IMG/VR virus record: IMGVR_UViG_3300046517_000572
Origin: an uncultured virus (IMG/VR IMGVR_UViG_3300046517_000572)
Taxonomy: Duplodnaviria > Heunggongvirae > Uroviricota > Caudoviricetes
DNA length: 64,000 nucleotides
Reading direction: 5' to 3' (one strand)
Every line of letters begins with the position of its first letter. The first letter of the stretch is position 1. This document shows, in pieces, positions 32,315 to 64,000 of this stretch. The notes beneath the pieces are model-generated. The model saw only the letters and a list, made by a program, of their open reading frames with translations, was not told the DNA's origin and did not search any database. The position numbers and the translations under genes were made by a program.

Positions 32315-35178
32315 CAGGCGAGGCCCGTGTCAGCGTGCTGCGCGTAGTCGAAGCGGCGGATTTCGCGGTGGATGTCGGTGGCGATGCTGGCAGCATCCTG
32401 CGCGGAGGAATGCACATGCAGCGCGCCGATATGGGTGGTGTTGGATTGATCAGTGCTGGAACTGGAATTGTCGTTGCTGCTCATCTGGAACCCCTGCGCT
32501 GCGGTGGAGGCCCCGACCGGTTCCGGCATCTTGGTTGCCCAGTCGTCGCGACGTGCCGCGTTGCTGCCCGCCAGCGTGGTCGTGGGCGCCGCCTGACCGC
32601 CGGGCGGGGTGAGTGTGGCCACCGCCGCTGGCGACGCCACCAGGGGCGCCTTGAGGGCGGCTGGCAGGGCTGATGGCGCGTAATCCCACCGGTCACCATC
32701 GGGCGTCATGGTAGGCGTCGGTCTCGGCGGTATCGGCTGTGGCGCCGTGGTTGGCGGCGGCGGATCGTTGGACGCCATCTGGGTGGTCGGCGCGCTATGC
32801 CGCAGCCGTGTCATCTCTTTCGCGATCATGTCGCGGTAGGATGCGCCGCTGGTCTTGAACGCATCGACGCCCGCGCTGCCGCCGTGTAGCTGCGCCAGGG
32901 CGCCGCCGACGCCCTTGAGATGTGCGGTGGCCAACTGGGCAAGCTGGTCCTCGGGCGACATCTTGGCGTAGATCGGGTCTTTCATGAGCCGCTTGTGGTG
33001 ATCGAGCGTGTAGTTGGCGAAATACCGCTCCTGCATCTCTGGGCTGTGCAGGAACGCTTCGGTGGATGGCGGTTCTTCGCCCAGCCGCTTGGCGGTCTCG
33101 TTGATCTCGCCGCGCCCCATCTGATACTTGCCAGCGAACCGACCGCTTGATCCGCCCATGATGCCGTAGCGTCCACCGGACTCGCGTAGCCCCAGCACGC
33201 CCCGGAAGGCGTTGGTCTGTTCCTGCGTGGCGCCGACGCCGCCGCTGAGATCGGTGGAGGTCGTGCCTGCGTCGGCATCCGCCGGGCGACGTGGTGTGGA
33301 AGCGCCGCCGCCCGCACCGCTACTGGTCGCCGCGCCGCCGCCAGCGATGCCGCCAGAGCCGACGCCACTGCTGCCGCCCCCACCGTAGCCGCCACCGCCG
33401 CCGCCGCCAGCGCCCACCCCAGCGCCCGTGCCGGTGCCGCTGGTTGCCGCTTTCGTCTGCGCGTCAGCAGCCGCCTGGAGTTTCGCAGCGGCTTCTGCTT
33501 GTTCCTTGGCTGCCTTGGTCGCCTCCGCCGCTGCCTCCAGTTGCGCAAGATGGGCTGCGATTTCCTTCTGAACTTCAAACACCGAATAGGTCTTGCCGCC
33601 CTTGGTGTATTCGGTGGCCGCTGTTCCGGTAAGCGGGTCCATTTGTGAAACTTGGAAACCAAGTTCGCCAGCGTTGGCAATTTCCGAGCCGCTCTTGAAC
33701 GCCGCATACGCTGCCGCCGCTGTCGCTGCCGCCGCTAGGATGATCGGCGTGACACTGATGGTCGCGGCGCCGCCCGCTGCGCCAGCCACAGCGGCCCCAG
33801 CCGCCGCTTCAGCACCAGCCAATCCGAGCGCACGCGCCAACAGACCGGTCAACGGCACCAGGGCAAGGTTCTTGGCCAAGCCCAGCACCGTGGTCATGTT
33901 GGCGATCATCTGGACGATCTTGCCGACCGTCCATAGCTCAAGCAGCAACTTGAACGATGCGCCCCAGCCGCCGAAGAACTGGGCGGTTGCGTCGGCGGCT
34001 TTGCCTAACTCGATGACCTTGCCGATGAACCCGCCGACGTGCCCGCCTTCCATCAGCGTGCGGAAGTCCTGGGAAAGACTCATGATCGCCGTGCCGAGCT
34101 TGCGGCCCCACTCGATCGCCTTCTCAGTCAGCCAGTCCTTGTTTTTGTCGATCCACTGGCTGATGCTTTTGACGACATCGTTGATCGCCGGTCCCAGGCC
34201 GCGCCAGAACTCGCGCGCGAGGCCCATCGCCTTCTGGGTCAGTTCGTCGAGGTCGTTGGAGAGTTCCTTGGCCGCTTTGGCGTCGGCGGCGGTGGTGAAG
34301 TTGCCCGATTCCTTGCGCAGCCGCTTGGCGCGTTCGTAGTCCTCGTCGCTCGCCTGCACCAGCGGCGCCAGCCCGCCGACACCAGCCCGCTGGGTGGCAT
34401 ACTCGATGTCGGTGGCAGACATGCCCTTGCGTTTGGCACCGCGCCGTAGCGCCTCGACCAGTTCATCGCCTTGCAGCAATTTATGATCCGGCCCGCGCAC
34501 TTCCTCACCGAACAGGTCGCGCACCGCAGGCACCAACTCGGAGGTGCCCTCGTATTTGATCTTGGCTTGCTGTTGCGAGACGTAGGCGAACGCGCTGGCG
34601 ACGCCCTGCGATGTGCCGCCGAGCCGACCGGCGATGTTCTCCCACATCGTCAACTGCTCGACATTCATGCCGATGTTGCGCGCGAGATAACCGGCTTCCA
34701 GATTGGCTTTGTTGATCCCGGAGAACAGCCGCTCGACCGCGTTGAGCGTCAGCGAGATGCCGAGCATCGCCAGCATCTCGGTGCCGACGCGACGGATCGC
34801 GTTCGCCGTCTTGTGGTAGGCTTCCGATGCCTGATCGGCGGCTTGCTTCTGCGCCTGCCCGGCGCGCTTGGAAGCGTCCTCCTGGTCCTTGGCGGCTTTC
34901 TTCGCCGCGTCCTCTTGTGCCTTGGCGGCTTTGTTCGCCGCGCTTTCCTGGGCTGACGCCGTCTTGTCTGCCGCTTCCTGGGCTTGCTCCGCAGCGGTCT
35001 TCTGGATGCGGGTGGTGTTGGCGGCGGTCTGCGCGGTGCGCTGCTCGATCTGTTGCAATGACGCCAGTATCTTTTGCAACAAATCGCTGGCGGCGGTATC
35101 GGCGCGCTTTGCCCCTTCCTCAAATCCCTTGGGGTCGAACCCCAGCGTCATCGTCAGTTCTTCGATGATGGTCGGCAT
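32314..35178 (-). CDS. Tape measure protein with lysozyme-like domain
   Basis: MPTIIEELTMTLGFD; Ala/Gln helical body; RESGGRY...AGKYQM lysozyme-like motif. Confidence 0.9.
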   Translation of the reverse strand: MPTIIEELTMTLGFDPKGFEEGAKRADTAASDLLQKILASLQQIEQRTAQTAANTTRIQKTAAEQAQEAADKTASAQESAANKAAKAQEDAAKKAAKDQEDASKRAGQAQKQAADQASEAYHKTANAIRRVGTEMLAMLGISLTLNAVERLFSGINKANLEAGYLARNIGMNVEQLTMWENIAGRLGGTSQGVASAFAYVSQQQAKIKYEGTSELVPAVRDLFGEEVRGPDHKLLQGDELVEALRRGAKRKGMSATDIEYATQRAGVGGLAPLVQASDEDYERAKRLRKESGNFTTAADAKAAKELSNDLDELTQKAMGLAREFWRGLGPAINDVVKSISQWIDKNKDWLTEKAIEWGRKLGTAIMSLSQDFRTLMEGGHVGGFIGKVIELGKAADATAQFFGGWGASFKLLLELWTVGKIVQMIANMTTVLGLAKNLALVPLTGLLARALGLAGAEAAAGAAVAGAAGGAATISVTPIILAAAATAAAAYAAFKSGSEIANAGELGFQVSQMDPLTGTAATEYTKGGKTYSVFEVQKEIAAHLAQLEAAAEATKAAKEQAEAAAKLQAAADAQTKAATSGTGTGAGVGAGGGGGGGYGGGGSSGVGSGGIAGGGAATSSGAGGGASTPRRPADADAGTTSTDLSGGVGATQEQTNAFRGVLGLRESGGRYGIMGGSSGRFAGKYQMGRGEINETAKRLGEEPPSTEAFLHSPEMQERYFANYTLDHHKRLMKDPIYAKMSPEDQLAQLATAHLKGVGGALAQLHGGSAGVDAFKTSGASYRDMIAKEMTRLRHSAPTTQMASNDPPPPTTAPQPIPPRPTPTMTPDGDRWDYAPSALPAALKAPLVASPAAVATLTPPGGQAAPTTTLAGSNAARRDDWATKMPEPVGASTAAQGFQMSSNDNSSSSTDQSNTTHIGALHVHSSAQDAASIATDIHREIRRFDYAQHADTGLA

Positions 35179-38008: not shown

Positions 38009-39856
38009 TTATTGAACCATCACTGACGCCAGGGTAAGGCGCTGGATCGAGCCGCCGTCCATATACCAAAAAGTGCATGGCGGCGTGCCGCGTGCGGCGC
38101 GCACCTGGGGGTTGGCGTCCAGCACCTGGAGGTGATAGCCGATCGAATTGAGAACGCCGTCGATCCTGACGCCCGCCATGTTGTTGACTTCGATCTTTTG
38201 CGCTTCCGACAACGTCACGCCGGGGCGGATCGCACCGAAATTGACCGCCATGTTGATCACGTCCTGGCACGCTGCCTTGATCATCGTGTAGCCGGTCTGG
38301 TTGTAAGGGATCGAACCGCTCTGGGTGAGCAGTTCCATCAGCGCCAACTGGAACGCGTTGTTCATCCAGATTTGGTTGATGTAACTGTCTATCCACTTGT
38401 ATGGACCCGACACGATGCCGGGATACATGAAGCGGAATTGGTCGTTGGCGGTCGTCCAGATGCCGTAGTAATTATAGAAGTTCGCTTCCAGGTTGGACGC
38501 GACGAGGCCGCTGATGACATCGGGCGTGATGCCGGTCTGGCCCCGGAACGCGATGGTCTTGCGGCCATTGAGCCGGTTGAAATCAATCGACGCGACGGTG
38601 CCCATCATGAACATCGCAAGGTTGCGGCCATTGGTGACGTTGGGCGAGTAGATCGGCGCCGTGCCCGACGACAGCGACGTGTTGAGAATGCGCCCCAGGC
38701 TGTCTGGATCGCTGGCCGAGGCTGTCGGGCCGACATCGGTATCCCAGCAAACATACATATAATTGTTCTGGGTGGAATTGACCCAGGCAGCAAACTGTTG
38801 CCGCCCGGTGTTGACCGTGGTGGTGTTGTCGGCTTCATAGGTGTGCGTGAACGTCGCCCAGTTTTGCGTCACCTTGAGGATGCTTGCCATCTGGCCAGCC
38901 ACGCCATCGGCGGGGTTGTGGCCACCAGGAGAATAACCGGTGCCAGCCGCATTGAGCCGTGCGCCATACGCCTGTCCCAGACCAAGCACGGGTGCCAGAT
39001 TACCTGACCAGCCGGTGAGATGGCTCATCGTCACTAGGTAACCGTCAGGGTCGCCCGCGTTGGCCCGCATCCAGCCTTGCGCGGTCTGGATTTTGAACTG
39101 GTAGGTCTGCGCGTCGTAGGAGCAGGGATTGCGCGCGACTTGAATGCCCGCCTGTGATGCGTGCGTGAACGAATTATTGACTTTCCAGGTGCTGGCCCCA
39201 GGTGTAACGCCACTGACAAATTGCGTGACATAAGTGCCCGGCGGAATGCCGGGACCGAACAGGCAGTCACCAACCACGATGTTATAGAGTCCAGTGGCGT
39301 TAAAGGGCGGATACGGCGCGTTCGCCGTCACCGTCATGGTCCCGGCAGCAAATGACGCGGTCAGAAGATTGTAAACGTAGCCATCCTGCATCTTGGTCGC
39401 CGCACCGATCATCTGTGCCGCCATCGAGAACGAAGTTGCGGTGGACAGTGAGATCGGCGTCGTGGTGCGGGATACGCCATTCACGCTGAACGTGAACGTG
39501 CTGTTCGGTGAGGTCGCCTGTAGCTGATCCAGGGTCAGCGTCGGCTTCTGTGCCGACATCAGCCACGCTGGCACCCACTGGTTGTAGTAAGTGCATGCGA
39601 TCAGTAGCTGTCCCGGCCGCTTGGTCGCGTTGATATCAGCCAGAAAATACGTGCCCGCCAGCATCGAGATGTAGCTGGTCGGCCCAAAGAACGACTGCAC
39701 CGATGTCAGGTCAGGAAACGAATAGACCTCCCCCAATGGAATGTGCTGATCCGTCGTGAGCAACAGTCCGTTGAGATCGAGGCCAACGCCGCCCGCATTC
39801 AGAACACTCGGAACGACGGATACGATTTGTGCTGCGGGGATCGCTGAACCGCTCAT
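38009..39856 (-). CDS. Tail sheath protein (DUF3383)
   Basis: IPAAQIVSVVPSV...QNWATF...WIDSYINQIW...WYMDGGSIQ. Confidence 0.92.
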   Translation of the reverse strand: MSGSAIPAAQIVSVVPSVLNAGGVGLDLNGLLLTTDQHIPLGEVYSFPDLTSVQSFFGPTSYISMLAGTYFLADINATKRPGQLLIACTYYNQWVPAWLMSAQKPTLTLDQLQATSPNSTFTFSVNGVSRTTTPISLSTATSFSMAAQMIGAATKMQDGYVYNLLTASFAAGTMTVTANAPYPPFNATGLYNIVVGDCLFGPGIPPGTYVTQFVSGVTPGASTWKVNNSFTHASQAGIQVARNPCSYDAQTYQFKIQTAQGWMRANAGDPDGYLVTMSHLTGWSGNLAPVLGLGQAYGARLNAAGTGYSPGGHNPADGVAGQMASILKVTQNWATFTHTYEADNTTTVNTGRQQFAAWVNSTQNNYMYVCWDTDVGPTASASDPDSLGRILNTSLSSGTAPIYSPNVTNGRNLAMFMMGTVASIDFNRLNGRKTIAFRGQTGITPDVISGLVASNLEANFYNYYGIWTTANDQFRFMYPGIVSGPYKWIDSYINQIWMNNAFQLALMELLTQSGSIPYNQTGYTMIKAACQDVINMAVNFGAIRPGVTLSEAQKIEVNNMAGVRIDGVLNSIGYHLQVLDANPQVRAARGTPPCTFWYMDGGSIQRLTLASVMVQ

Positions 39857-48761: not shown

Positions 48762-49139
48762 TCATCCTAGGACCGGCGTGATCGTCATCGTCAGGTCGCG
48801 GATATAGAGCCGTCCTTGCAGCGTTTCGTTGACCGTGAAGGTCAGCCAATACGGCACCCCGGCCGACGCTGGCGGCGCGTAGAACCCGACCGTGACGCGT
48901 AAGCCCCGGTCGTCCAGTGTGTTCGGCCACGAGGCGCCCGCGAGGCGCAGATCGTTGCCGGTGATCGCCGTGCCGTCCGCGCGGTAGATGCCGATCGCCA
49001 CCGTCGCGATCGAGGTGATCTTGTCACCGACGATGCCGAGATCGGTGGAGGCATCGATATAGCGCCCATCGACCTCGCCCGCGCGCAGCGGCGGCATGCA
49101 CACGGGACCGGGGGTTGGGGCGCAGTCGCAGCCGTTCAC
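48762..49139 (-). CDS. Fibre adaptor-like protein
   Basis: GTGA-coupled to the giant gene; D.R.ID...GD.I...Y.LTFTV...GRLYIR pattern. Confidence 0.65.
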   Translation of the reverse strand: MNGCDCAPTPGPVCMPPLRAGEVDGRYIDASTDLGIVGDKITSIATVAIGIYRADGTAITGNDLRLAGASWPNTLDDRGLRVTVGFYAPPASAGVPYWLTFTVNETLQGRLYIRDLTMTITPVLG

Positions 49140-52100
49140 AGCACGGACACTCCGACCAGTTGCGGTGGCAGGTAGACGCCCTGCGAGGCGATCTGTTCGC
49201 GCGGCTTGCTGGCATCGGTCTCGATCTGGCCGACACCTCTGATCCGCGCGCTGGTGTGCTGGTGCGATTTCTGTTCGCCGTCGAACCCGACGTGTCCCTG
49301 CCCGGCGATGGCAACGTGCGCCATGACCCGATCATGGCTGCGTTCGATCACATGGCCACGCGCGGTGATCCTGACATGCGCTTCGGCGTGCAGCGTGGCG
49401 CGGACATGCGACACCGTGGCGTGACCGGCGATCCTGACATGGGTCGAGACCAGCACATGAGCGGTTGCTCTGACGCTGCCCGCGCCGCCAAGCTTGGCAT
49501 GCACCGGGAAGGGTGCCTTGCGGTGGCCCGCGACGAACGCACCCAGTCCGTGGATCATGGCCAGCGCGGGCGCCCAAACGCTGCCACGCGCCGTGACGCT
49601 GCCAGCCCCTGTGATGCTCGCCCTGGCGTGCTGCGACCGCGCAGCGTGCGCCGTAGCCCCGCCAGCGCCGTGGATCGCGGCTGCCGCGTGGACCTGGGTG
49701 ACGGTGACGCTGTCCACCCGCAGCCAGCTTGAGCCGTCGATCTGCGCCTCTGCCGAGACCTGACCGATCTGTGACCCGTTCGCCCTGGCCGTGCCGGTGC
49801 CGTGGATCGTGGCGCTTGCTGCCACCAGCACCCGCGTGACGCTCGCCCTGACCGTGCCGACGCCCGCGATGGTCTTGTCCACGTTGACCACGGCAGCGCG
49901 CAGGCCGATCGCCACTATGGCGCCCAGGCCCGCGATCAACGCCTCCGCCGCCACGGTGGCAGCGCGGAACGCATCGGCGCGGACCCTGCCGACACCCGCG
50001 ATCAGCGCCGCCGCGCCGAGCGTCTGGCGGATCGGCGTGCCGTCAGCGGCGACCTGTCCAACCCCACCGATGCCAGCACTGGCCACCGGACGATGGTTGA
50101 GCAGGCCCCTGACCTCACCCTCGCCGTCGAGCAGCGCCTCGGCGTGCCGCCATGCCGTGCCGTGCGCGTCAACCGTGCCCGCACCAGCCACCAGGGCTTG
50201 CCCTGCGGCCCGCACGGTGGCGGTCGCGTAGACGTTGCCCTCTGCCTCGATCAGCCCGTCACAGGGCGGCGCGCGCCTGCCCTGGACATGCACGGCGGCA
50301 GTCCCGGTGATCGTCGCCGCCGCTGTCTGCAAGACCGCGATGATCGTGTCGCGCACCCGCAAGAGACCAGCGCCCGCGATGGTGACGTTGCCGGATTTGG
50401 CCGGGAACGCGGTGGCATACAGCCTGCTGTTTCCGGCGATCGTCGCGGCGCCGTAGCGCACCCGCTGCGACACCGCAGCGATCTGCCCGACGCCCCGGAT
50501 GCGCGCGATAGTCGGATGCGCGACAGCGGCGGTTGCCTGCACGCCGCCGACGCCAAGCAGGCGCGCCTTGACGGCTTCCTTGGCGGCGAAACCGACAATG
50601 ACCGAACCAGTGCCGTGGATCACGGCATGCGCCGCGTGGAACTGATGCAGCCCCACGATGATGATGTTGCCGACGCCCGCCAGCGTCGCGTTGGCGCGTG
50701 CCTGTCCGACGAACGAACTGTCGGCGCTGATCAGCCCCTGGCCGTTGATCCGCGCCGCCGCCTGCACGACCTGGGTGGGCTTTGCCTCGACGCCACGCAG
50801 CGCCCGTTGCGGGGCGCCGATCGGCGGCAGCATCAGCGACGTGACGTTGAGTATCTCAAGTTGCGGTGCGCCGATCCGCAGCGTGATGTCGATCGCGAGT
50901 TCCGAGAGGAACCGCATCAGCATCACCGGACGGGTGTAGTAGACGTTGGCTTCTGAGAATGGGAACGTCGTGACGGTGGAGCAGCGCGCCTGATCGAGCG
51001 GCGTGACGGCATCTGACGGCGTTACGATCGTATAATTATCGGTGATGTAGGTGCCGTCAGCCCTGAACGCCTGGGCATTCAGGTTGAAGGTGATGGGACT
51101 CCTGTCACCGTCGATGACCTTGAGGAACGCCGACAACGCGACGGTGTCATACTGATTGGCGCGGATTTCCTGATTACCGGCGAAGATGACATCAACCACG
51201 AGATCGTTCGTGGTGCCGATCCAATGCACATCGATGTAAGGGATGCCGTTCTCGATGCCGGTGCCCAGGATAGTCTGCGTCAAGCCTGCGGTGCGCAGAC
51301 CCTGCTGCCACCCGACAGGCCACGTCCCAGGCGTGCCAGGAACCGCGCCTTCGGCGCGCGGGTTGGTGATGAAGTTGGTCTTGCCGCCCTGGCCGGGAAT
51401 CGCCAGCACCGGCAATGCCAGCTTGGCGAGTGTCGCGCCGACGCCGCCAGCGCCCGCGATCGTCGCGACACCGGGACGCACCGCGCTGGTGGTCGCGCTG
51501 ACACTGCCGACGCCATCGATCTCCGCCTGCGCCAGCCCTGGCACGCGCGGCATCGCCAGCAAGCCGCGTGACGTAGTGCCTGGAACACCGACCGGCGGCA
51601 GAATTAGCGGCGTGCGAACTGAGCCACGCTCAAGCTGACAGGCGGCGATCCTGATGGTGAAATCAACCGCCCCGGAAGCAGGATAGTTCCACGCTAAAAA
51701 GCCACCACTGACCATCGTCGCGCCAGTGGGCGCTGCTGCGGTGCTGCCGTAAGCCGTCAGTGTCGCGTTAAGCAGTGTGCCGATGACAACGGGATTATTG
51801 CCGACATCGAAATTCGAGACGTAGTAGAACGTCCCAGGCGGGATATTGGCGAGACTGCCGCCCACCAGAGCGAGCCATGCCGTGGTGGTAAACGTGTCGC
51901 CAGCGGCAACGATTGGCCAGTAAGTCGGCTCGACGTGGAGGAACGCATTGCCCGCCACCGCTGTGCCGGAAACCCGCACATCGACATAGGCAAAGCCGGT
52001 TCTCGCATCGACGCCGGTCGCGACGATCTGTCTGGTTACTCCAGGCTGCGCCGGGTTGTCTGATGGAAACCAATAGGTCGGATAAGCACCGCCCGAGCCG

Positions 52101-55100
52101 ATCACGCCAAGCACCGCGCCCTCGGCGCGCGGGTTGCGCACGTAGTTGGTCTGCCCGCCACGACCATCGATCTGCGCGCCGGTCGGTGCGTAGTTTCGGG
52201 CATCGACCGAGAGCGAACCAACAGCAGTGATCCGCGCGCCAGCCGCCGCCAGCGTGTAGGCACTCGCTGTGACGCTGCCCGCGCCGCCGATGGTGACGTT
52301 GCCAAGGATGGTCGGCGCGGCGACGACGGTGTCGGGGATCGCCTGCCACAGCGAGGTGTAGATCGGCGTCGCGGTAGCGTCGGTAATGCGACAGACCACC
52401 GGGAAATCGGCGTTCGGTGCCCCTGGAGGTCTAAACGTGACCCGCTGCCACTGATTGGTCAGGCTGAGATTAGCGCCAAAACCCGGCGGTCCAGGGTAAC
52501 CGCCGCCCTCAGCGTTGATTTGAATGGCCGTCCCGGCCCATCCGGCTGGTATCCATACCATCACGCTGACCGTCAGCGGGATGTAGGGTAACCCAACAGT
52601 TCCGATAGCGCCCGCTTGGTTGGTTCCGACCCCAGATGCGATGTGCTTGAACACCAGCGCGCCGACAGAAGGTGGCACAATGTCGGTCGAGATGACGCAC
52701 GTATTCGTGCCGCCAGCAACAGGGATCGCCTGGGCTGATATCTTGTTACCGTTGCCACCCGCGATCACCGCCCCGGTCGGCACCGCCACAGGCGCGATGG
52801 ACGCTGCTACACTGCCCGTGCCGTTGATCGTGGCGCCGGTCGGGGTGAACGATCCGGGCGCCGCCAGCAAGGCACGCGTGGTCAGCGCCCAGGTTCCAAC
52901 CGGAGGCAGGATCAGCGGCGTGCGAACCGAACCACGCTCTAACTGTGCGCCCGATATGCGCAGGGTGAAGTCAACCGCGCCTGCGGCGTAGACGATCTGG
53001 ATGTAGCCGCCCTGAACTGAGCGGGTGCCACTAGGCGCGACTCCGGTCGTGCCCCATGCCGATGGTATCGCCGTGACCGAAGGTATCGGAATACTGACGA
53101 TAATCTGACCAGTCGGCTGAAACGCCGAGACGAAATAGAGGTTGGTGATGTTGGCTAAGGTTCCGCCCGATACCGACAGCCAGACCGTGTTGATGAACTG
53201 ACTGCCGCCGCCGAATGGAAACGTGCCGTTCTCGACATACAGATAGAACTGGCCGGTTCCTATCGTCGTGCCGGAATAGCGAACATCGATGTAGTTACAG
53301 CCGGTATATGCGTCCAGCCCTACGCCGACGACCTGTTGCGTTAATTGGGCTGGGAGTGAAGCGACATTCCAGGCTGACGGCAGCGTTCCCGGCGTGCCGG
53401 GCGCCGCGTTAATAGCGCGCGGATTGCGGATGTAGTTCGTGGCGCCGCCGGTCCCGTCGATCTGCGCGCTGGCGTTGATCGCGATACCGGGGGCTGCAAG
53501 CAAGGCACGCGTCGAGACCTGGGGCGAGCCTGCCGGTGGCCAGATCGGACTGCTGACCGGCCCGCGCTCCAACTGCGGCGACGCGATACGCAATGTGAAA
53601 TCGATCGCCTGCAATACGTCGTAGTAGACCCAGATGCCCGACTGCACCTGGGTCATCGTCGGGTAAGGACCGATGCCGGTGCCGACCAACTGCTGGTCAA
53701 TCAACGGAGCATTGGTGGGCACAAAGGTTTGCGGCGTCGTCCAACCATAGCTGAGAACGCCATTTGCTGCGTCCAACGCATACGTCATCAAATGGACGCC
53801 GACGTTACCCGCCGAATAGGTCGGGAACGCCCCGGCTTGCAATTTTATATAGACCGAATTGGTCCAGGTCTCGCCGGATATTCCTCGCGTTGTATAGCTG
53901 ACAGTGACCGGATTATATGAAAACGCCAGATTAAAGGCCAGGGAGTTGGTCGGCCCTGTGGTCGTGCCGTATATACGAAGGTCTATATACGATAATCCGC
54001 CCTCGGTGCCGGTCCCAGTGATCTGCCACGCCAGACCCGCGCCCATACTGAGACCGAGCCAGCCAATGGGCAGCGTCCCAGGCGTGCCTGGAACCGCGCC
54101 TTCCAGTCGGGGGTTGTATATCCAATTCGTGGTGCCGCCCTGCCCAGCGATCAGCGCATTCGCAACGGCTGGCGTGGTGACCAGATCGAGGTCGAGGCCG
54201 TAGAACTGATAATCCTGGGCCGAAATTGTCGGACTGGCAGACGGTGGATTAGCAAACGCCGACCACACCGAGCCACCGACGACGCCTCGCAGCGCCGTCA
54301 GGCTTTGGTCAGCCCACATCTGCCCGTCACCGGCTGCGGCAAGGGTCGCGAGGAAATAAGTGTTGCCAACCGTCAGCGTGGTCTGTGGCAGCGCCGTGTA
54401 GTAGAAGATACCGGGTATCGCGCCAGTCAGATCGATGGTGACGGTCTGCACCGTGGTGCCGCCGGTAACATCGTATATTCTGAGCGTGTGGATGCCCGTG
54501 CCACCGATCGGGCAACGAATGCCGATACGATTGAACGTCAGCGCAACAGCGGCTGTAAACCGCACACCGAGATCGCCGCCAAAATCCTGTCGGTTTGCTG
54601 TGCTGGCCGCAACGCCAAAACTTACCGCGAACCGGTTTGGCGTAACATCGCGACCACCGCTGGCGTTGGCGAAGATGCCGCGTTCTTGTGTTATATACCG
54701 CGAAACCGCTGGCAGGATCGGCGCAGTCGGCACCGTGCCGATCTCAAGTTGCTGCGGGCCAAACCGCAACGTGATGTCGATCGGCAGACCGGCTGTTACA
54801 TCGATACGAAAATCGGCAATCACATTAACGAGGAAATCTGGCGGGACATACGCGACAGAATAACGCGTCAGTGTCGCGGTCGGAGTGAACGGCCCAAACG
54901 CCGCACCGAAGCTGCCCGCAATACCAAGACCGCCACGAATGTCCAAGTTTGTAGCGCCAATATTGGCCAGACTGCCGCCGACCATCGCGACGTAGCAAGA
55001 AAAGACCAGGGGCGTGTTGCCGCCGAACGCAGGCATGACCGCCTGATTGTTAAACCCGAGAATGACGCCCGTGCCGGTCGGCGTGCCATAATGGCGCAGA

Positions 55101-56803
55101 TCGACATAGGGCGTGCCATCCGCGAGCGTGCCGAAGCCAGTCACAGACACTGTGACGCCGTTGCTGGCGTAGTAGGCCCAGTAAGGCGGCTGCGAGCCGC
55201 CTGCCCCGAGAACCCCGACTGTTGCGCCCCATCCGCGCGGGTTGGGGATGTAGTTGACCGGCGCGCCGCCTGTGCCCGCGATCAGCGCGGAGGCGGCGAC
55301 AGGCCCCCTGACGGCATTGGGCGCGACACCGCCCGCACCAGCGATCCGCGCCTGGGCGTTATAGATCAGCGTAGCATTCGCCAGCACGCTGCCAGCGCCA
55401 TTGATCCGCGCCGATGTTTGGAACGCCTGCGGACCGGCCAGACGAATCGTTGCATCGGCACGAACTGCGCCAGCGCCACCGAACACCGCGCCTTGCATGA
55501 TCGCTGGATTGAACGTCCAATGATTACCACTGTAAGGTCGGGAAGTTCCTAGCGTCGGTGCATCGTTATACGACGCGCCAGTGTTTGTCAGCCACGCGCC
55601 GTTGTGTGTGATGTTGGACGCGGCACCAGAGCCGGTTGTGCCTGATCGGGTAAGCGGCGGGGTTTCCCATCCGTTTACCGTGTCCAGTGTGAACGTGTCG
55701 CCGATCGGACCATTGACGGTCAGAATATTGAGAATGCCCTGTCCTGCATTCAGAGGCTGGGGTCCGGTGCCGACACTTGGATTGCCAGAGGCAGCGTTAT
55801 AGGCAAATCCAGATGGATTTCTGCTGGGAGCATAGCCACTGACAAAGACCGCCGACGACACCTCGGTGAGAGATGACGTGGTGATGTTGATATTCTGCCC
55901 GAATGGCAGACCTTTGGAATTGCCGCACCAATAAGCCTGATACGAGATACCCTGCGTGTTGGCGAGACCACCGAGACTGACATAGGTGTTGCCCGCGTTA
56001 TCACTGACAGATACGACCGGCATCGTCGTGCTGAGTGCCGATACCTGAAAAAAGATGCCAGCACCAACTGGAACGCCACCGGTCGGAGCTGGAATGATCT
56101 GAGCAGTCCCCGGCTTAGCATTAACGCTGCCGATATCGTAGAACGAGACACCGATGCTTGCCGGTCTGACCGCAAAGATGATGCAATTCCAATTGCGGGC
56201 AGCGAATGACGCGTTATAGTTTATCTGTGTTGAGGCGACGATCTGACCACCGGCAACCGTAAGGTCCGTGCCGCCTGTCGTGCCAACGCGCGTTGGTGGC
56301 GGATCGGACCAGCCGCTTGATTGCGTGAAACTGTCAGTGACAGGTCCGTCAGTGCCCACCGCAGCAAGGATCAGCGAGTTGGACAACATCGGCACCACTG
56401 CCAGTGGCAGGCTACCCGTTGACGCGCTGGACTGGGCGCTGCCGGTGTTTACTGTCGCCGTATCGATCGGACGATAAGGGTCCGCTCCGGTGACGTAGAA
56501 AGCCGACAGGACGTAGGTCTGGGCAGAAGCCCCTGCACTGGACCTGATGGCAGTGCCAGCCGCCAGACCGGTTGGCGTAACATAATAATCCACCGACAGG
56601 CCGTAATTCGACGTGCTGTTGCCTCGGTAGACAACAAGCACCGTAGGTGACCCGGCGACGGTGACGGTGTGTCCGACCGAATTATTGGCAAACGTATATA
56701 CGATGACGACCGCGCCAGCCGGTATGTCTACCGCCGTCGTGACCGTCGCGGAGGTCACACCTTTGACGGCAACGGTTCCCAGATCAACGGTCGTGAAGGC
56801 CAT
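49136..56803 (-). CDS. Giant (2555 aa) modular virion fibre/adhesin
   Basis: Two N-terminal duplicated beta domains, five NPR...PQLE CBM-like domains, one DUF4082-like domain, about 35-40 AxIxGxGxVxA repeats. Confidence 0.9.
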   Translation of the reverse strand: MAFTTVDLGTVAVKGVTSATVTTAVDIPAGAVVIVYTFANNSVGHTVTVAGSPTVLVVYRGNSTSNYGLSVDYYVTPTGLAAGTAIRSSAGASAQTYVLSAFYVTGADPYRPIDTATVNTGSAQSSASTGSLPLAVVPMLSNSLILAAVGTDGPVTDSFTQSSGWSDPPPTRVGTTGGTDLTVAGGQIVASTQINYNASFAARNWNCIIFAVRPASIGVSFYDIGSVNAKPGTAQIIPAPTGGVPVGAGIFFQVSALSTTMPVVSVSDNAGNTYVSLGGLANTQGISYQAYWCGNSKGLPFGQNINITTSSLTEVSSAVFVSGYAPSRNPSGFAYNAASGNPSVGTGPQPLNAGQGILNILTVNGPIGDTFTLDTVNGWETPPLTRSGTTGSGAASNITHNGAWLTNTGASYNDAPTLGTSRPYSGNHWTFNPAIMQGAVFGGAGAVRADATIRLAGPQAFQTSARINGAGSVLANATLIYNAQARIAGAGGVAPNAVRGPVAASALIAGTGGAPVNYIPNPRGWGATVGVLGAGGSQPPYWAYYASNGVTVSVTGFGTLADGTPYVDLRHYGTPTGTGVILGFNNQAVMPAFGGNTPLVFSCYVAMVGGSLANIGATNLDIRGGLGIAGSFGAAFGPFTPTATLTRYSVAYVPPDFLVNVIADFRIDVTAGLPIDITLRFGPQQLEIGTVPTAPILPAVSRYITQERGIFANASGGRDVTPNRFAVSFGVAASTANRQDFGGDLGVRFTAAVALTFNRIGIRCPIGGTGIHTLRIYDVTGGTTVQTVTIDLTGAIPGIFYYTALPQTTLTVGNTYFLATLAAAGDGQMWADQSLTALRGVVGGSVWSAFANPPSASPTISAQDYQFYGLDLDLVTTPAVANALIAGQGGTTNWIYNPRLEGAVPGTPGTLPIGWLGLSMGAGLAWQITGTGTEGGLSYIDLRIYGTTTGPTNSLAFNLAFSYNPVTVSYTTRGISGETWTNSVYIKLQAGAFPTYSAGNVGVHLMTYALDAANGVLSYGWTTPQTFVPTNAPLIDQQLVGTGIGPYPTMTQVQSGIWVYYDVLQAIDFTLRIASPQLERGPVSSPIWPPAGSPQVSTRALLAAPGIAINASAQIDGTGGATNYIRNPRAINAAPGTPGTLPSAWNVASLPAQLTQQVVGVGLDAYTGCNYIDVRYSGTTIGTGQFYLYVENGTFPFGGGSQFINTVWLSVSGGTLANITNLYFVSAFQPTGQIIVSIPIPSVTAIPSAWGTTGVAPSGTRSVQGGYIQIVYAAGAVDFTLRISGAQLERGSVRTPLILPPVGTWALTTRALLAAPGSFTPTGATINGTGSVAASIAPVAVPTGAVIAGGNGNKISAQAIPVAGGTNTCVISTDIVPPSVGALVFKHIASGVGTNQAGAIGTVGLPYIPLTVSVMVWIPAGWAGTAIQINAEGGGYPGPPGFGANLSLTNQWQRVTFRPPGAPNADFPVVCRITDATATPIYTSLWQAIPDTVVAAPTILGNVTIGGAGSVTASAYTLAAAGARITAVGSLSVDARNYAPTGAQIDGRGGQTNYVRNPRAEGAVLGVIGSGGAYPTYWFPSDNPAQPGVTRQIVATGVDARTGFAYVDVRVSGTAVAGNAFLHVEPTYWPIVAAGDTFTTTAWLALVGGSLANIPPGTFYYVSNFDVGNNPVVIGTLLNATLTAYGSTAAAPTGATMVSGGFLAWNYPASGAVDFTIRIAACQLERGSVRTPLILPPVGVPGTTSRGLLAMPRVPGLAQAEIDGVGSVSATTSAVRPGVATIAGAGGVGATLAKLALPVLAIPGQGGKTNFITNPRAEGAVPGTPGTWPVGWQQGLRTAGLTQTILGTGIENGIPYIDVHWIGTTNDLVVDVIFAGNQEIRANQYDTVALSAFLKVIDGDRSPITFNLNAQAFRADGTYITDNYTIVTPSDAVTPLDQARCSTVTTFPFSEANVYYTRPVMLMRFLSELAIDITLRIGAPQLEILNVTSLMLPPIGAPQRALRGVEAKPTQVVQAAARINGQGLISADSSFVGQARANATLAGVGNIIIVGLHQFHAAHAVIHGTGSVIVGFAAKEAVKARLLGVGGVQATAAVAHPTIARIRGVGQIAAVSQRVRYGAATIAGNSRLYATAFPAKSGNVTIAGAGLLRVRDTIIAVLQTAAATITGTAAVHVQGRRAPPCDGLIEAEGNVYATATVRAAGQALVAGAGTVDAHGTAWRHAEALLDGEGEVRGLLNHRPVASAGIGGVGQVAADGTPIRQTLGAAALIAGVGRVRADAFRAATVAAEALIAGLGAIVAIGLRAAVVNVDKTIAGVGTVRASVTRVLVAASATIHGTGTARANGSQIGQVSAEAQIDGSSWLRVDSVTVTQVHAAAAIHGAGGATAHAARSQHARASITGAGSVTARGSVWAPALAMIHGLGAFVAGHRKAPFPVHAKLGGAGSVRATAHVLVSTHVRIAGHATVSHVRATLHAEAHVRITARGHVIERSHDRVMAHVAIAGQGHVGFDGEQKSHQHTSARIRGVGQIETDASKPREQIASQGVYLPPQLVGVSVL

Positions 56804-56834: not shown

Positions 56835-57230
56835 TTAAGCCAAGGTAATGATCAAAGCGCCTGCTGCAAATACGAGGCTATCCCCCGCGTTCAGCGCCCT
56901 GGCAGTTGTGAGCGTGCCATACCACAACATATTGCCACCCGCCGCCGCAGCGGTGTCCCACACTTGCAGCCCCGAGATCGTTGCAGCGGAAAGGATCGGC
57001 CCGAACGTCATCGCGCCGGTATTGGACGCACTGCCAGCGGGCGATGCAGCCGCTGCCATCAGCAGCGTCTGGCGCGTCATGCCCGAGCCGGTGGCGATCT
57101 CAGACCCCGACACCGACGACGGGACACCGAGCGACAGACCCACACTCCAGGTCGTCGGGCGCGTCACCGCCGCGTTGTTCAGGGAAAAATCCAACATTGC
57201 CTTTTCCAGGTATGCCGCTATGCCAGCCAT
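56835..57230 (-). CDS. Small fibre-associated structural protein
   Basis: AYLEKAMLD...GSEI...RQT...VWDTAAAAGGNML...GDSLVFAAGALIITL; GAGGAG RBS. Confidence 0.82.
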   Translation of the reverse strand: MAGIAAYLEKAMLDFSLNNAAVTRPTTWSVGLSLGVPSSVSGSEIATGSGMTRQTLLMAAAASPAGSASNTGAMTFGPILSAATISGLQVWDTAAAAGGNMLWYGTLTTARALNAGDSLVFAAGALIITLA

Positions 57231-58263
57231 GACTCTCTCCTCTCAAAGCGGCCTTGGCCGCGACAAAGACTTCCTCGTGTGAGATATCCGCGATGCACGC
57301 CGCCGCTTCGGCGTTCTCGGCTTTACGGCACGTCTCGATGGTGTCGTGCAGCTTGTGGCACGGCCAGCAATCGACGCGTTTCTGATCCGCGAACAGCGGC
57401 AGCGTGGCGGCCCAGTGCTTGGTGATGTTAACGGGCGACGCGTGGCTCAGAAGCATGATCTTCGGCACCGCTTCCATCGCGACGCCCCAGGCCAGCCCGG
57501 TGTCGGGCGAGATCACCAGATCGCACTGCTGCAAGGTCGTCAGCGAGCGGCGGATCGGCCAGGACGGCTTATCCTTGTCGGGCGAAATCGCCGCGTGCAT
57601 ACCGCTGTAGCCACTGTTGTATTCGCCCACAAAGTCCTGGATGTGCTTGGCGATCTTGGTCTCGGCCTCGGAGCCGAACAGCAGCACGGCGACGTTCAGT
57701 TCGCGCACCAGCTTGGCGACCAGCAAGGGCAGGTAGGGCCAGGATTTGTCGAGGCGCGAACCGGACAGGACGATACCGACAACATGACGATAGCCGCCAG
57801 CGCCGCGCACCGCGTCCAGCGTCCTGCGCGCGTGGTCGGTCTCCTCGATCGTCGGATAGAAGCGCGGGTTAAATTCATGCCGCACCCCCACGATGTCGTG
57901 GACGTATTCCAGGTAATTCACGCCGCAGTATTTGCGGCGCCACGCGGCGGGCCAGTGAAACTGGGTCTGCCCCGGCAGCAGCGCCAGCACGCCTTCGCAG
58001 GAGTGCGACAGGTTGAACCAGCGATCGTATTCGCGCCCGCGATGGGCGAACCATTGCTGCCAATGATTGCCATCGGCCGGGAGGTCGCCGGACTTGCGCA
58101 CCGTCAGCTTGGCGATGTGCGGGTTGTTTTCAAAGACGACGTGCTGCGGTTCCTGGGCCATGACCTCGACGTTGTGCGTCTCGGCAAGCAGCGGCAGCAC
58201 AGAGGACGCGATCAGGTTGTCGCCAATCCCTCCGAGACGGGCGAGCAGACACCACGGCTTCAT
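57100..58263 (-). CDS. Glycosyltransferase family 9 (ADP-heptosyltransferase-like)
   Basis: RLGGIGDNL, NNPHI, KSWP, ISPDTG, CWPC...C...C. Confidence 0.88.
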   Translation of the reverse strand: MKPWCLLARLGGIGDNLIASSVLPLLAETHNVEVMAQEPQHVVFENNPHIAKLTVRKSGDLPADGNHWQQWFAHRGREYDRWFNLSHSCEGVLALLPGQTQFHWPAAWRRKYCGVNYLEYVHDIVGVRHEFNPRFYPTIEETDHARRTLDAVRGAGGYRHVVGIVLSGSRLDKSWPYLPLLVAKLVRELNVAVLLFGSEAETKIAKHIQDFVGEYNSGYSGMHAAISPDKDKPSWPIRRSLTTLQQCDLVISPDTGLAWGVAMEAVPKIMLLSHASPVNITKHWAATLPLFADQKRVDCWPCHKLHDTIETCRKAENAEAAACIADISHEEVFVAAKAALRGESHGWHSGIPGKGNVGFFPEQRGGDAPDDLECGSVARCPVVGVGV

Positions 58264-61142: not shown

Positions 61143-61736
61143 TTACGCCTTGCGCGACCGCGCACCGCCAGCAAGGAAGTCTCTTGTGCTGGTGCTGCCC
61201 GACAAATGACTTTCGAGTTCAGCCGCCGTATGTCCTTGCGCGCTAACGCTACCGTCCGTCACATGGGTCCAGACGTTATTGCCGAGATCGTGGCGCGGGT
61301 AAACGTGAATGCGGTCACTCGTTCCCTTCTCCCGGCTTTTATACATCTTATGCACAAGGTGGTCTCTCACCGGATCGTCCGATCCTGCTGTGCCCAATTC
61401 GACATAGCCGTGCTTGGCGATCGGCGCCTGCATGGCGCGGTGGTAGTCCTGCATGTCCTTGGGCAGCGATGACAGGTGTTTCGCGTTGTGCGCGCCATCC
61501 TCGCCGCCCACGCCACCGCCGCCGCTGGTCCACTCGCCAGAGGCGGCGCGTGGCTGATCGGCGTCCTGCGCCCCGGCTTCATCTTCAGAAAAATCTGGCA
61601 GTGAGTCGATATCCACGATCTCGTCGGGGCTTTCGATCGGCTTGGTGCCGAGTGCTTCCGCCGTGAAATCGTGGATCACCTTGCCGCCGACTGAGGCGAC
61701 CCCCATCAGGGGCTTTTCGGTGTTGTCCGACATCAC
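61143..61736 (-). CDS. Putative head-cargo protein
   Basis: GAQDADQPRAASGEWTSGGGG motif; lies between the ART and MuF genes. Confidence 0.7.
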   Translation of the reverse strand: MMSDNTEKPLMGVASVGGKVIHDFTAEALGTKPIESPDEIVDIDSLPDFSEDEAGAQDADQPRAASGEWTSGGGGVGGEDGAHNAKHLSSLPKDMQDYHRAMQAPIAKHGYVELGTAGSDDPVRDHLVHKMYKSREKGTSDRIHVYPRHDLGNNVWTHVTDGSVSAQGHTAAELESHLSGSTSTRDFLAGGARSRKA

Positions 61737-64000
61737 TCGCCCTCTACATGCTTGCCCGAGATCATCCGGATCGTGGTCTGCGCCCCCGGCACGATCTCGT
61801 AGACCTCGAATTGCTGGCCGTGCATCAGTAGTAGTTCATTCTCGTTCAGACCGGAAACCGTGTCGGCCCCCAGCGCGCGGGTGCCCTTGCGACAGGTCAT
61901 CTCCAGGATCACCGGCTTGCCGCTGAACGCGGCCTTGTCAGCCATGCTCGTGGAGACAAATCCCTCGGTGTTGTAATAGCACGGCAGCCCGGCCTTGAGA
62001 CCAGCCAGCCAGCCGGGGATCAGCTTGCCGATCGTGGTCGATCCCACACCGCGCCGCAGCACCACGTCCTCGGTCAGCTTGGTTTCCTCTCGCTTGTAGA
62101 GTGAATGAACCGCCTTGACCGGGGCGACCGCGTGCGAGGTATCGGCATCGATCTGACCGCGCAGCACGCCGTTCATCGAACCCGAGCCGCTGCCGCAGTA
62201 GGACTCGGTGGCTGACTTGGCTTTATGATCCACGCTGTCCCAGAACTTCTGCTCCAGTGACGGCGCGATCTTGCGCGCCTTCGCGGATTTGGTGCTGGAT
62301 AGCTGGGTGGCGCCATTATAGGTTTTATTCGCCCAGGCGAGAACCTCCGCGTCAGCGTGCTTGGTGCTGTTGGGCTTCGATGGTGACGGCGGCGCCTTGG
62401 GTGCCGCTGGTGCCGCTTTCGGCGCGGCTGGCGTCGGCACGCTAGGTGTCGCGGCATCGGCAAACCCGACACCGGGGATCGGTTCGCCGCCCAGCGACTT
62501 GATCCAGCTATTGGCGAACTTGGCACTGTAGCCGTCTGGATAGTTCACCACGGTCGGATAGGTCTTGAGTTGCTCGACCTTCTCCTCGTTGGTGCCTGTG
62601 CCTGACGCGATGTCGTAGAGGTTCTGCTGATGCTGCGACTTGGCGTTCGGCGCCGGTCCCTGCGGTGGCATCGGTGGCTTTGACCAGCTTGCGGCGACCT
62701 CGTTCTTCAGCTTGTTGACCTGAATCTCGGCGTAGTCCTTATGCCCCGGCGGCGCAAACGTGTTTTCAATGATCGTGTAATTGATGGCGTCGATCTTCTG
62801 CTGCGCCGTCAGCCCAGGATCGGCCACGATGTCATCGACCTTGCCTTTCATGCCGATATTCTTGGGCGTTGGCGGGGTGGCGCCGTTCTCTTGCGCGACC
62901 TTGGCCATGATCACGGCCTTGGCGTAGCCGTGTTCGGCGCTGCCTTCCTTGATCACCCCGCTGGCGAGGCCCTTGTTCATGTAATCCAACAGCCCGGTCG
63001 ATTTGGTGAATCCCTTGTCTGCCATCGAGTGGATGTTCACGATGGTGCCGTTGCCTTTGAACATGGCGGGCAGCGGCGGAATGATCCCCTGTTCGATGCC
63101 CGCGATGGACTGCGCCGCCGTGCCCGGTTCCGCTGTCGGTGGCTCGCCCTTGATCGCCGCGATCAGCTTCTTGGCGTAGTCCCGCGTCGGCCCCGAACCG
63201 CCCTTGGCGTCGCTCTCAAGCTGCTTGATCTTGTTGTCGGTCTTCCAGTGACCGTGCGCGGCGACTTCCCACATCTCTTGCTGCACCGCCGTGCCGTCAT
63301 GCGGTGGCAGGCTTTCGCCCATTTCCTGTTCAAGCTGGTTAAGCCCCGCCGTCGCCTCGCTGATGTCGTGACCCTGGAGTTCGGCAGCTTTCTTCAGGTC
63401 TTTCAGCGTATCGATCTTCTGCTGCAAATGCCCTGGCCCGGTCAGGATCGCATGCACCGCCGCGATCGGCACCTTGCCGCCTTGTGGCGTCGGTGGCGGC
63501 GCGGCTGGATTTAGCTGGAAGTTCTCCAGCGGATCAGCCGCCGCCATCTTCTCCATCTCGGCTTCGGACGGCGCGCCTTGCGAGGGTGGCCCCTCGACGC
63601 CGCCCTTCATCTTCACCGCCTTGCCCAGCGCGCCCTTCGGCATGCTGTGGTGATCGGCCAGATGGTCGATCAACTGGTTCATGAAGCCAGCGACGTTGCT
63701 GGATTTCATCTTGCCAGCTTCGGTCTTCATCAGCGTGGCGAGTTCGTGCGGATTATCATTGCCGGAAGCGATATGCTCCTCCAGCGCCTTTTTCATCTTG
63801 GCGCCAGCCGGTCCCGCATACTTGGTTAATTCCGGCACCGGCTTGGACGGTTTCGGAGCCGAGCCACCGCCGCCGCTCGCGCTGGTGGCGAACTTGCCGC
63901 CCTCGTCGCGTTTGACCGCTGACTCGTCCCACTCACCGATCATCGCATCGGCGGCGCCCGCGAAACTCTCGATCGCCTCGTCAGACGCGGGCAGCGCATC
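61733..64000 (-). CDS. R-S-E ADP-ribosyltransferase (VIP2/Alt-like) virion cargo protein, 5'-truncated by the window
   Basis: VLRRG, FVSTS, ENELLL; frame is open from 64000 (DALPASDEAIESFAGAADAMIGEWDES...). Confidence 0.85.
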   Translation of the reverse strand, partial: DALPASDEAIESFAGAADAMIGEWDESAVKRDEGGKFATSASGGGGSAPKPSKPVPELTKYAGPAGAKMKKALEEHIASGNDNPHELATLMKTEAGKMKSSNVAGFMNQLIDHLADHHSMPKGALGKAVKMKGGVEGPPSQGAPSEAEMEKMAAADPLENFQLNPAAPPPTPQGGKVPIAAVHAILTGPGHLQQKIDTLKDLKKAAELQGHDISEATAGLNQLEQEMGESLPPHDGTAVQQEMWEVAAHGHWKTDNKIKQLESDAKGGSGPTRDYAKKLIAAIKGEPPTAEPGTAAQSIAGIEQGIIPPLPAMFKGNGTIVNIHSMADKGFTKSTGLLDYMNKGLASGVIKEGSAEHGYAKAVIMAKVAQENGATPPTPKNIGMKGKVDDIVADPGLTAQQKIDAINYTIIENTFAPPGHKDYAEIQVNKLKNEVAASWSKPPMPPQGPAPNAKSQHQQNLYDIASGTGTNEEKVEQLKTYPTVVNYPDGYSAKFANSWIKSLGGEPIPGVGFADAATPSVPTPAAPKAAPAAPKAPPSPSKPNSTKHADAEVLAWANKTYNGATQLSSTKSAKARKIAPSLEQKFWDSVDHKAKSATESYCGSGSGSMNGVLRGQIDADTSHAVAPVKAVHSLYKREETKLTEDVVLRRGVGSTTIGKLIPGWLAGLKAGLPCYYNTEGFVSTSMADKAAFSGKPVILEMTCRKGTRALGADTVSGLNENELLLMHGQQFEVYEIVPGAQTTIRMISGKHVEGE

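Follow-up and report, generated by a model that had tools for sequence, protein, structure and literature searches.

Among the head genes of an uncultured tailed phage, in a stretch of 64,000 nucleotides (IMG/VR record IMGVR_UViG_3300046517_000572; hereafter "the window", meaning this whole stretch), lies an open reading frame (ORF) for a protein of 2555 amino acids, built of short repeats into which whole domains have been inserted, and it raises the question of what such a protein does for the virus. A preliminary description had read it as a long head- or neck-attached filament, in which the repeat itself forms the backbone of a plug-in display rack for glycan-binding domains. We conclude that this myophage protein is probably the rope in a virion fibre of the chain-like (beads-on-a-string) type, docking beads of the gp80 family along its length and carrying lectin-type domains in the turns of its units. 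The virion filament and the lectin-type domains seated in one and the same turn are retained from the preliminary description, and neck attachment is plausible because relatives of a small neighbouring protein match the gp77 adaptor family of Ralstonia podophage GP4; what is not supported is the repeat as a backbone in its own right, since a bead gene accompanies every rope locus retrieved and a structural model puts the repeat hairpin between two bead monomers. In view of this linkage and this model, the repeats are best read as the docking sites of a rope that runs through bead dimers.

The repeat unit and its bead gene

The giant ORF starts with ATG and runs in a single reading frame on the minus strand, and a 20.5-kb IMG/VR fragment carries it at 100% identity, letter for letter. 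Its repeat unit is 20-23 residues long, with the consensus AxAxIxGxGxVxA followed by about eight variable residues. Scanning the protein with a profile of its own units gives 36 matches, a circular count that includes two partial matches; because it also omits two half units (AVIAGG at residues 1344-1349 and LAIPGQGG at 1800-1807), a fair total is about 36-38. In a control that does not depend on the profile, the motif [IVLFM]xGx[GS] is found 46 times, and 25 of the spacings between occurrences measure 19-23 residues; 1000 shuffles of the protein gave means of 16.5 occurrences and 0.43 such spacings, and maxima of 30 and 4. The preliminary description had counted some 35-40 copies of a unit of about 21 residues and had proposed repeat detection as a check; the in-phase spacing, far above that of shuffled sequence, bears the repeat out. 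When 13 homologues are aligned, almost all units prove to have an invariant I, G and G, and conservation is much higher in the C-terminal array than in the half that bears the inserts.

Directly upstream, with 31 bases between its end and the start of the giant ORF, lies the gene for a protein of 131 residues. This protein is a member of PF23140, "Podophage GP4 fiber I protein gp80" (E = 1.9e-25; 90.1 bits, where 27 is the cut-off), also hits chain a of PDB 8JOU, the solved GP4 bead (E = 8.6e-6), and has seven relatives at 52-87% identity. What is said here of GP4 Fiber I (gp77 adaptor, rope and gp80 dimers; PDB 8JOU) comes by way of PMC13730344, PMC12609058 and PMC11445570. Proteins of the gp80 type form dimers along a rope, each dimer making up an augmented β-sheet with its docking site (PMC13730344).

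We modelled two copies of the bead together with rope residues 2252-2296, which cover one uninterrupted unit. The three values of the interaction prediction score from aligned errors (ipSAE) were 0.88, 0.85 and 0.88, compared with 0.01 for the best of three controls; the same ipSAE mark is attained by 116 of 157 solved complexes and by 2 of 215 mismatched pairs. Contacts agree by at least 95% between runs, at a partner pLDDT (predicted local distance difference test) of 68-69. In the model, the unit at residues 2257-2283 touches both bead copies symmetrically: in one copy, residues 125-129 of the C-terminal strand pair with AAALIA (2264-2269), the first strand of the unit, and in the other copy the same strand pairs, at residue 128, with the second strand (2273-2275). 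Because the two strands of the hairpin pair with opposite copies, the GxG turn would lie on the axis of the bead dimer, and the unit is predicted to dock between the C-terminal strands of the dimer as an augmented β-sheet.

The association of bead and repeat extends well beyond the window. A cassette of four genes, encoding a GT9-like protein (GT9, glycosyltransferase family 9), the bead, the rope and an adaptor-like protein, recurs in six rope lineages (window/L003, L006, L007, L008-10, L011 and L012-13), in all of which the bead gene lies 0-1.7 kb upstream of the rope; no bead gene was found in the flanks of four loci that carry the domain inserted in the rope, described below, without repeats. 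We also surveyed the reverse direction, starting from 54 bead loci in viral contigs, 43 of which extend at least 3 kb downstream, and scoring any same-strand ORF that starts within 4 kb downstream and has at least four in-phase IxGxG spacings. Such an array follows the bead gene at 34 of the 43 loci (not de-duplicated), with 4-57 spacings in ORFs of 219-2946 residues, some of which end at the edge of the locus, and 11 of the 34 also carry the inserted domain.

Two cultured Zobellviridae podophages are among the phages with a bead homologue, and the genes that follow it, annotated as "tail protein" or "hypothetical", look from their sequences like short ropes. In Methylophilales phage MEP401 this gene (gp59; L015:3671-4486) encodes a "tail protein" of 272 residues with ten exact 20-residue xLxGxGTLSA units. 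The unit profile derived from the window scores weakly on it (10.5 bits, against a maximum of 8.3 in 200 shuffles, of which 153 were scored), so that the assignment of gp59 as a rope rests on the exact 20-residue phase. The corresponding gene of Roseobacter phage CRP-5 (gp55; L016:2112-2936) has only degenerate units plus RITExGDxR repeats.

Domains inserted at the turn of the unit

Five inserts of about 190 residues each share the pattern TN[YWF]IxNPR ... LRIxxPQLE ... ILPPxGxPxxxxR, can be aligned with one another, and begin where the preliminary description had placed its NPR...PQLE domains (Table 1). We predicted the fold of the fourth with AlphaFold2, using an alignment of 24 domain copies from six ropes, and obtained a β-sandwich (pLDDT 82.5; predicted template-modelling score 0.80). 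Compared with the PDB by Foldseek, this model matches 74 chains at E ≤ 1e-3. A hyaluronan-binding module and carbohydrate-binding modules (CBMs) of families CBM4, CBM16 and CBM22 head the list, which also includes a CBM70-type sandwich and phage tailspike, baseplate and fibre proteins. The top match is 4d0q (E = 5.7e-6), and CBM4-2 is matched at a target-normalised template-modelling score of 0.67-0.68; sequence identity to the structural matches is 8-22%. In the viral library BFVD there are 394 matches at E ≤ 1e-3, many of them named as tail fibre, CenC-type CBM or concanavalin A (ConA)-like lectin. The structure prediction and Foldseek search that the preliminary description had proposed thus reveal a CBM4/16/22-type sandwich in the insert. 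Because no Pfam family is found at E ≤ 10 on any of the five copies, which places them outside the curated CBM families, "CBM-like" is a statement on fold, not on family or ligand.

The claim that the unit is split at its GxG turn by a whole domain and then resumes was examined across the 24 copies of the CBM-like domain in the six ropes. An IxGxG half unit precedes the domain in 20 of the 24 copies, and in 17 of these it stands exactly three residues ahead of the invariant N. A conserved R closes the domain in 22 copies; after it, [VIL] at +2 and an A-type residue at +4 follow in 21 (background 0.14), and the next strict IxGxG lies exactly 16 residues past the R in 14. The other ten distances are 13, 14, 20 (twice), 36 and 38, with none found in four copies; several of these ten come from L011, where the units are degenerate (ALILAGA, ALITGSVG) but by eye still in phase. 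In uninterrupted arrays, the modal distance from the second G of one unit to the I of the next is likewise 16 (81 of 158). Because the two distances are the same, the terminal R stands where the second G would be, and the unit picks up again in register.

These flanks are a property of the rope, not of the domain, since they are absent from proteins that have the domain and lack the rope: in Azospirillum phage Cd gp49 and the proteins of L004, L005 and L014, neither the half unit (0/4) nor the post-R pattern (0/4) is present. In the alignment of homologues, R1310, A1314, A1750, R2003 and A2007 are invariant or nearly so. The boundaries of the inserts therefore meet the turn of the repeat, and six units are split, five by CBM-like domains and one by another domain. 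This sixth insert, between AVIAGG and VVAAP, is unrelated to the other five and is conserved in 9 of 20 proteins, counting P0001; after it, the unit resumes 14 residues before the next I instead of 16. Among relatives, the number of inserted domains per rope ranges from 0 to 8. The rope flanks of the folded insert are disordered when modelled alone (pLDDT below 50 for model residues 1-9 and 214-232), as would be expected if they need a partner.

Azospirillum phage Cd gp49 (L001:5239-7986), which has the domain without repeats, is the sole match in the phage collection, and a scan of species genomes returned two loci in metagenome-assembled genomes with the domain only. In L001, L004, L005 and L014, a strand of the form GLLAEP, NLVEAA or LLLEPG stands just before the TN start of the domain; in ropes, a similar RxLLAxP strand comes after the domain instead.

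Assembly, anchoring and competing explanations

The C-terminal end of the rope is the candidate anchor. Rope N-termini are variable, and shorter ropes open directly with a half unit and a CBM-like domain; at the C-terminus, the motif GVxLPP is kept in five of the six lineages, the L012 rope being without this tail. The next gene, for a protein of 125 residues (p125), has a GTG start that overlaps the stop codon of the rope (GTGA) and follows the rope in five of the six lineages. No Pfam family matches p125 itself, but a profile search recovered 66 relatives, and 6 of 28 aligned family members match PF23148, "GP4 fiber-tail adaptor protein gp77", at E ≤ 1; only P0062, which scores highest, is above threshold (29.0 bits; cut-off 27). 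In Escherichia myophage Bas63 and Pseudomonas podophage A1002, the rope is likewise anchored through its C-terminal side (PMC12609058; PMC13730344).

In the arrangement that we propose, each unit would form a β-hairpin (strand AxAxIxG, turn xG, strand xVxA) sitting between the C-terminal strands of two copies of the 131-residue bead and completing their sheets. Bead dimers would assemble on successive hairpins, with the number of units setting the length of the fibre and up to about 36 dimers threaded; at about 27 Å per dimer, the value for A1002 (11 dimers on ~300 Å), 36 units would correspond to a fibre of about 100 nm. The uninterrupted C-terminal array and the GVxLPP tail would make up the proximal stalk, probably held at the neck by a translationally coupled, gp77-like adaptor or collar. 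We infer that the variable, insert-bearing N-terminal half is the distal, binding end, where five CBM-like sandwiches and one other domain would stand off the chain from the GxG turns. Judging by their modelled fold, the inserts probably bind glycans, and they would then provide weak, multivalent and reversible binding to host surface polysaccharides before the baseplate fibres engage. A similar role in binding lipopolysaccharide has been speculated for GP4 Fiber-1 and for the whiskers of Bas63 (PMC12609058).

Several results weigh against this arrangement. No solved chain in the PDB shows detectable sequence similarity to the rope, whether this is searched as the whole protein, as its C-terminal 555 residues (only a chance match to an FGF2 tag, E = 2.3) or as the unit profile (only RagA and pectinase, E = 0.67-1.3, taken as chance). 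Docking comes from one structure prediction of one unit, and, as the GP4 and Bas63 complexes have been solved, the score of the model may mirror likeness to them, not binding of this pair. Nine of the 43 bead loci are without a strict array, seven of them among the most distant beads (33-40% identity). The neck anchor is indirect, because p125 has no Pfam match, no PDB match with either of two profiles (8JOU included) and no confident fold (pLDDT 41.7, from a five-row alignment); it also has no match in PHROGs. A CBM fold on a neck fibre is, moreover, no proof of receptor binding, since the neck-fibre CBM of cyanophage A-1(L) did not bind its host (PMC10966104).

A further objection, that the bead dimer could be sterically hindered by an insert of about 190 residues in the turn, also speaks for an alternative that we regard as unlikely: only the ~25 uninterrupted units would carry dimers, while the half strands of the six split units would form a stem under each domain, leaving the N-terminal half as a bare, flexible string of lectin-like domains at the end of a beaded stalk. 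The complex model does cover an uninterrupted unit, the C-terminal array is the much better conserved part, and the folded insert has short strands at both ends (model residues 13-15 and 206-208) that could form such a stem. However, split units keep motif and register as strictly as uninterrupted ones (20/24 before the domain, 21/24 after it, and the 16-residue phase in 14/24), and residues I1545, G1547, G1549, A1750, G1804 and G1806, all invariant among the 13 homologues, are hard to explain for a simple stem. The rope of A1002, too, has a globular immunoglobulin (Ig)-like domain (residues 108-242) between segments of its fibre-dock (PMC13730344).

Much less probable is the view closest to the preliminary description, in which the repeat folds on itself as a β-solenoid or an oligomeric fibre and the small protein encoded upstream is a head or tail component that has nothing to do with it. 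Solenoids can indeed arise from Gly/Ala-rich strand-turn-strand repeats, but the linkage of a bead gene to the array in all six lineages and at 34 of 43 surveyed loci, the separation of the complex model from its controls (0.88 against 0.01), the disorder of unit flanks in the monomer model and the beads-on-rope architecture of published complexes all argue otherwise. We give almost no credence to a giant internal head or ejection protein. The location of the gene within the head morphogenesis module, between a Mu-F-like gene and the protease/scaffold genes, and the ADP-ribosyltransferase domain encoded by another gene of that module would suit such a protein; on the other side, CBM-like domains are typical of tail fibres (many of the 394 BFVD matches are named tail fibre or CBM), the flanking bead and adaptor families belong to external fibres, and family scans of the giant ORF found no transmembrane, enzymatic or DNA-binding family. 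A tape-measure role was also considered and dropped, because the tape measure is located elsewhere, at 32314-35178.

The rope that docks beads, which remains our preferred reading, can be extended to a "charm bracelet" adhesin, a version that we offer tentatively and hold to be doubtful as a whole. The hairpin turn would then be a general plug-in site, split units would still thread dimers, the GT9-like enzyme would modify the fibre, and long ropes (20-57 units) would be common but unseen in environmental phages. If so, each lectin-like domain would project from the two-fold axis of its own bead along a fibre of ~100 nm, the number of units determining its length and the plugged-in domains its specificity.

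Comparison with known fibres and remaining features of the locus

To our knowledge, beads-on-rope fibres have been seen by cryo-electron microscopy only since 2023 (GP4 in 2023, Bas63 in 2025 and A1002 in 2026). Among the solved examples, the number of bead dimers is 2, 5 or 11 (PMC12609058; PMC13730344). In GP4, Fiber I has five dimers on a separately encoded rope (PMC13730344) that is interlocked with an Ig-like collar (PMC12609058). The present locus resembles GP4 in having a bead of the same Pfam family, a separate rope gene and a small neighbour whose family touches PF23148, and the predicted docking of a hairpin between the two subunits of a dimer fits the published augmented β-sheet. 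It differs in the scale of the rope (~36 units against five dimers), in the lack of detectable sequence similarity between the ropes, and in belonging to a myophage with the cassette in its head module, whereas GP4 is a podophage with the fibre on its tail adaptor; docking-site inserts are not reported for GP4 in the sources cited.

Bas63, a Felixounavirus, offers a myophage parallel, with bead dimers on a rope mounted at the neck, as we propose here. Its whisker dimers wrap the N-terminal rope of an Ig-like collar "such as beads on a string", two per collar, and the authors call this collar-whisker complex homologous to the adaptor/Fiber-1 complex of GP4 (PMC12609058). Unlike the N-terminal extension of a collar that serves as the rope in Bas63, the rope described here is a separate protein of 2555 residues, with lectin-like inserts and with the C-terminus as its conserved end. 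A1002, in which eleven dimers of gp40/gp41 occupy the ~300-Å fibre-dock in gp39, its nozzle-rope protein, at ~24 residues per site (PMC13730344), has a similarly long rope with C-terminal anchoring, a distal N-terminus (as would be the case here) and docking sites comparable in length to our unit of 20-23 residues. In A1002 the rope is part of a fusion with nozzle domains and winds around the tail tube; the present rope, in contrast, lacks a nozzle portion, has three times more docking sites and bears CBM-like inserts repeatedly in the hairpin turn.

Two further comparisons concern form and fold. Anabaena myophage A-1(L) (gp82-gp81-gp80) has a beaded neck fibre of ~100 nm with a distal carbohydrate-binding module, but the published account describes trimers that join head to tail, with no rope and no PF23140 dimers, so the resemblance is in form only (PMC10966104). 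The inserts share the β-sandwich of CBM4, CBM16, CBM22 and CenC-type modules and of ConA-like tail-fibre domains, and differ from them in falling into no Pfam family at E ≤ 10.

The kind of fibre is thus known; what is new is the length of the rope (~36 units), more than three times that of any solved one, its separate gene in a myophage, within a cassette of the head module, the insertion of domains, variable in number among relatives, at a fixed point of the docking hairpin, and the conserved GT9-like neighbour. A literature search, with most subscription journals outside its scope, found no rope with more than 11 docking sites or with domains in its docking units. The locus and its relatives suggest that the beads-on-rope principle operates at a much larger scale (~36 units here and up to 57 in-phase spacings in a relative) and in myophages as well as podophages. 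The rope would be a scaffold as well as a ruler, holding whole binding domains at one defined point of the hairpin, which yields a concrete rule, open to testing, on how phages change the length and valency of an accessory adhesin, and a natural blueprint for a self-assembling filament with multivalent display. For giant "hypothetical" repeat proteins in viromes, it suggests an annotation signature: a PF23140 gene followed by an IxGxG array with a period of 20-23 residues.

Table 1. Features of the rope protein and its cassette, with positions in the window and residues of the rope protein.
Feature	Rope residues	Window position	Strand	Basis
125-aa protein (p125), candidate fibre-to-neck adaptor (collar)		48762..49139	-	synteny, family matches
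Rope protein, 2555 aa		49136..56803	-	repeat array with inserts
C-terminal tail with motif GVxLPP, proposed anchor		49139..49192	-	conserved in 5/6 rope lineages
Uninterrupted C-terminal array, ~25 units, best conserved part, His-rich at end	2004-2537	49193..50794	-	unit profile, homologue alignment
CBM-like domain 5, in unit turn	1809-2003	50795..51379	-	mutual alignment of copies
CBM-like domain 4, in unit turn (copy folded)	1552-1746	51566..52150	-	AlphaFold2, Foldseek
Sixth insert, between AVIAGG and VVAAP	1351-1492	52328..52753	-	no Pfam family
CBM-like domain 3, in unit turn	1122-1310	52874..53440	-	mutual alignment of copies
CBM-like domain 2, in unit turn	892-1099	53507..54130	-	mutual alignment of copies
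Domain with weak DUF4082 / GH115_C likeness, in linker between units	725-878	54170..54631	-	Pfam, below cut-off
CBM-like domain 1, in unit turn	515-708	54680..55261	-	mutual alignment of copies
First run of units, the last being the half unit ALIAGTGG	442-513	55265..55480	-	unit profile
Two duplicated N-terminal domains, proposed distal fibre end	1-215 and 216-435	55499..56803	-	BLASTP
131-aa bead protein, GP4 gp80 / whisker family		56835..57230	-	PF23140
387-aa distant GT9-like (heptosyltransferase-like) protein, first cassette gene		57100..58263	-	sub-threshold family matches

The window is a segment of a myophage genome and encodes a tail sheath (38009-39856), a baseplate, a tape measure and a tail fibre together with its chaperone. 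The major capsid protein shares ~44% identity with its counterparts in Aeromonas phage 56-like phages and ~40% with those in Bcep1-like phages. The head module, on the minus strand, opens with a 736-residue protein whose C-terminal part is an ADP-ribosyltransferase domain; then come, in order, a Mu-F-like protein, two small ORFs, the 387-residue protein, the bead, the giant ORF, p125, a DUF2213 protease/scaffold, a cement protein and the major capsid protein, which agrees with the head-module location given in the preliminary description. As a whole, the 2555-residue protein matches no Pfam or PHROG family, and a sequence search of the PDB was empty.

Other features of the rope noted in the preliminary description were also recovered, one of them in part. 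The two N-terminal domains are indeed duplicates (BLASTP, 30% identity, E = 1e-9); among homologues they are present only in P0001 and P0002, and their neighbours in the Atlas are only unnamed viral proteins of ~190-230 residues. A domain does exist where a DUF4082-like one had been described, but its match to that family is below the cut-off (PF13313; E = 0.033, 14.6 bits against 28.4), as is its likeness to GH115_C (E = 0.012). The last repeats are His-rich, as had been seen, with 8.9% His in residues 2331-2555 compared with 0.4-0.7% before residue 2010. These last ~10 units (rope residues 2331-2537; window 49193-49810, minus strand) account for 20 His in 225 residues, at positions that are largely kept in close homologues, as judged by the consensus of their alignment; near the anchor, such units could possibly have a metal- or pH-dependent role.

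The 387-residue protein is conserved beside the bead gene in all six lineages, and its likeness to GT9 enzymes is distant. Its match to Pfam Glyco_transf_9 (E = 8.3e-4, 19.2 bits) is below the cut-off of 22, and five of six members of its own family match the NCBIfam heptosyltransferase I model (best E = 3.2e-4, 20 bits against a cut-off of 185). In the Atlas, its nearest clusters are viral (score 0.98), with PF01075 in 14-26% of their members, and a search of the PDB gave no match. Bacterial heptosyltransferases decorate repeat adhesins, and in a comparable way the GT9-like protein may modify the fibre. Its family (window, L006, L007, L008, L011 and L012) has an invariant N-terminal GGIGDNL and a CxPCHxLHD...TC...C cluster of cysteines and histidines. 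We considered the GGIGD of this protein as a rope unit and dropped it, taking it to be the usual GT9 motif. The last ~40 residues of the protein are not conserved, and in the window, L007 and L008 their coding sequence shares 131 nt with the bead gene in a different frame; no overlap of the two genes is found in L006, L011 or L012.

The 736-residue protein with which the head module begins (window 61733-63943, minus strand, possibly open to 64000), encoded two genes upstream of the Mu-F-like gene, has its ADP-ribosyltransferase exoenzyme domain at residues 559-722 (PF03496; E = 6.4e-11), preceded by ~550 residues to which no family was assigned; it may be an effector packaged in the virion.

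Two of the other lineages show variations around the bead gene. In L011 there are two bead paralogues (3583-3978 and 4533-4928), both matching PF23140 (E = 2.7e-16 and 1e-23); two bead types on one rope would parallel gp40/gp41 of A1002. In L012 (6064-7985), three to four extra ORFs of 136-156 residues, with no Pfam family, lie between the bead gene and a rope of 3127 residues.

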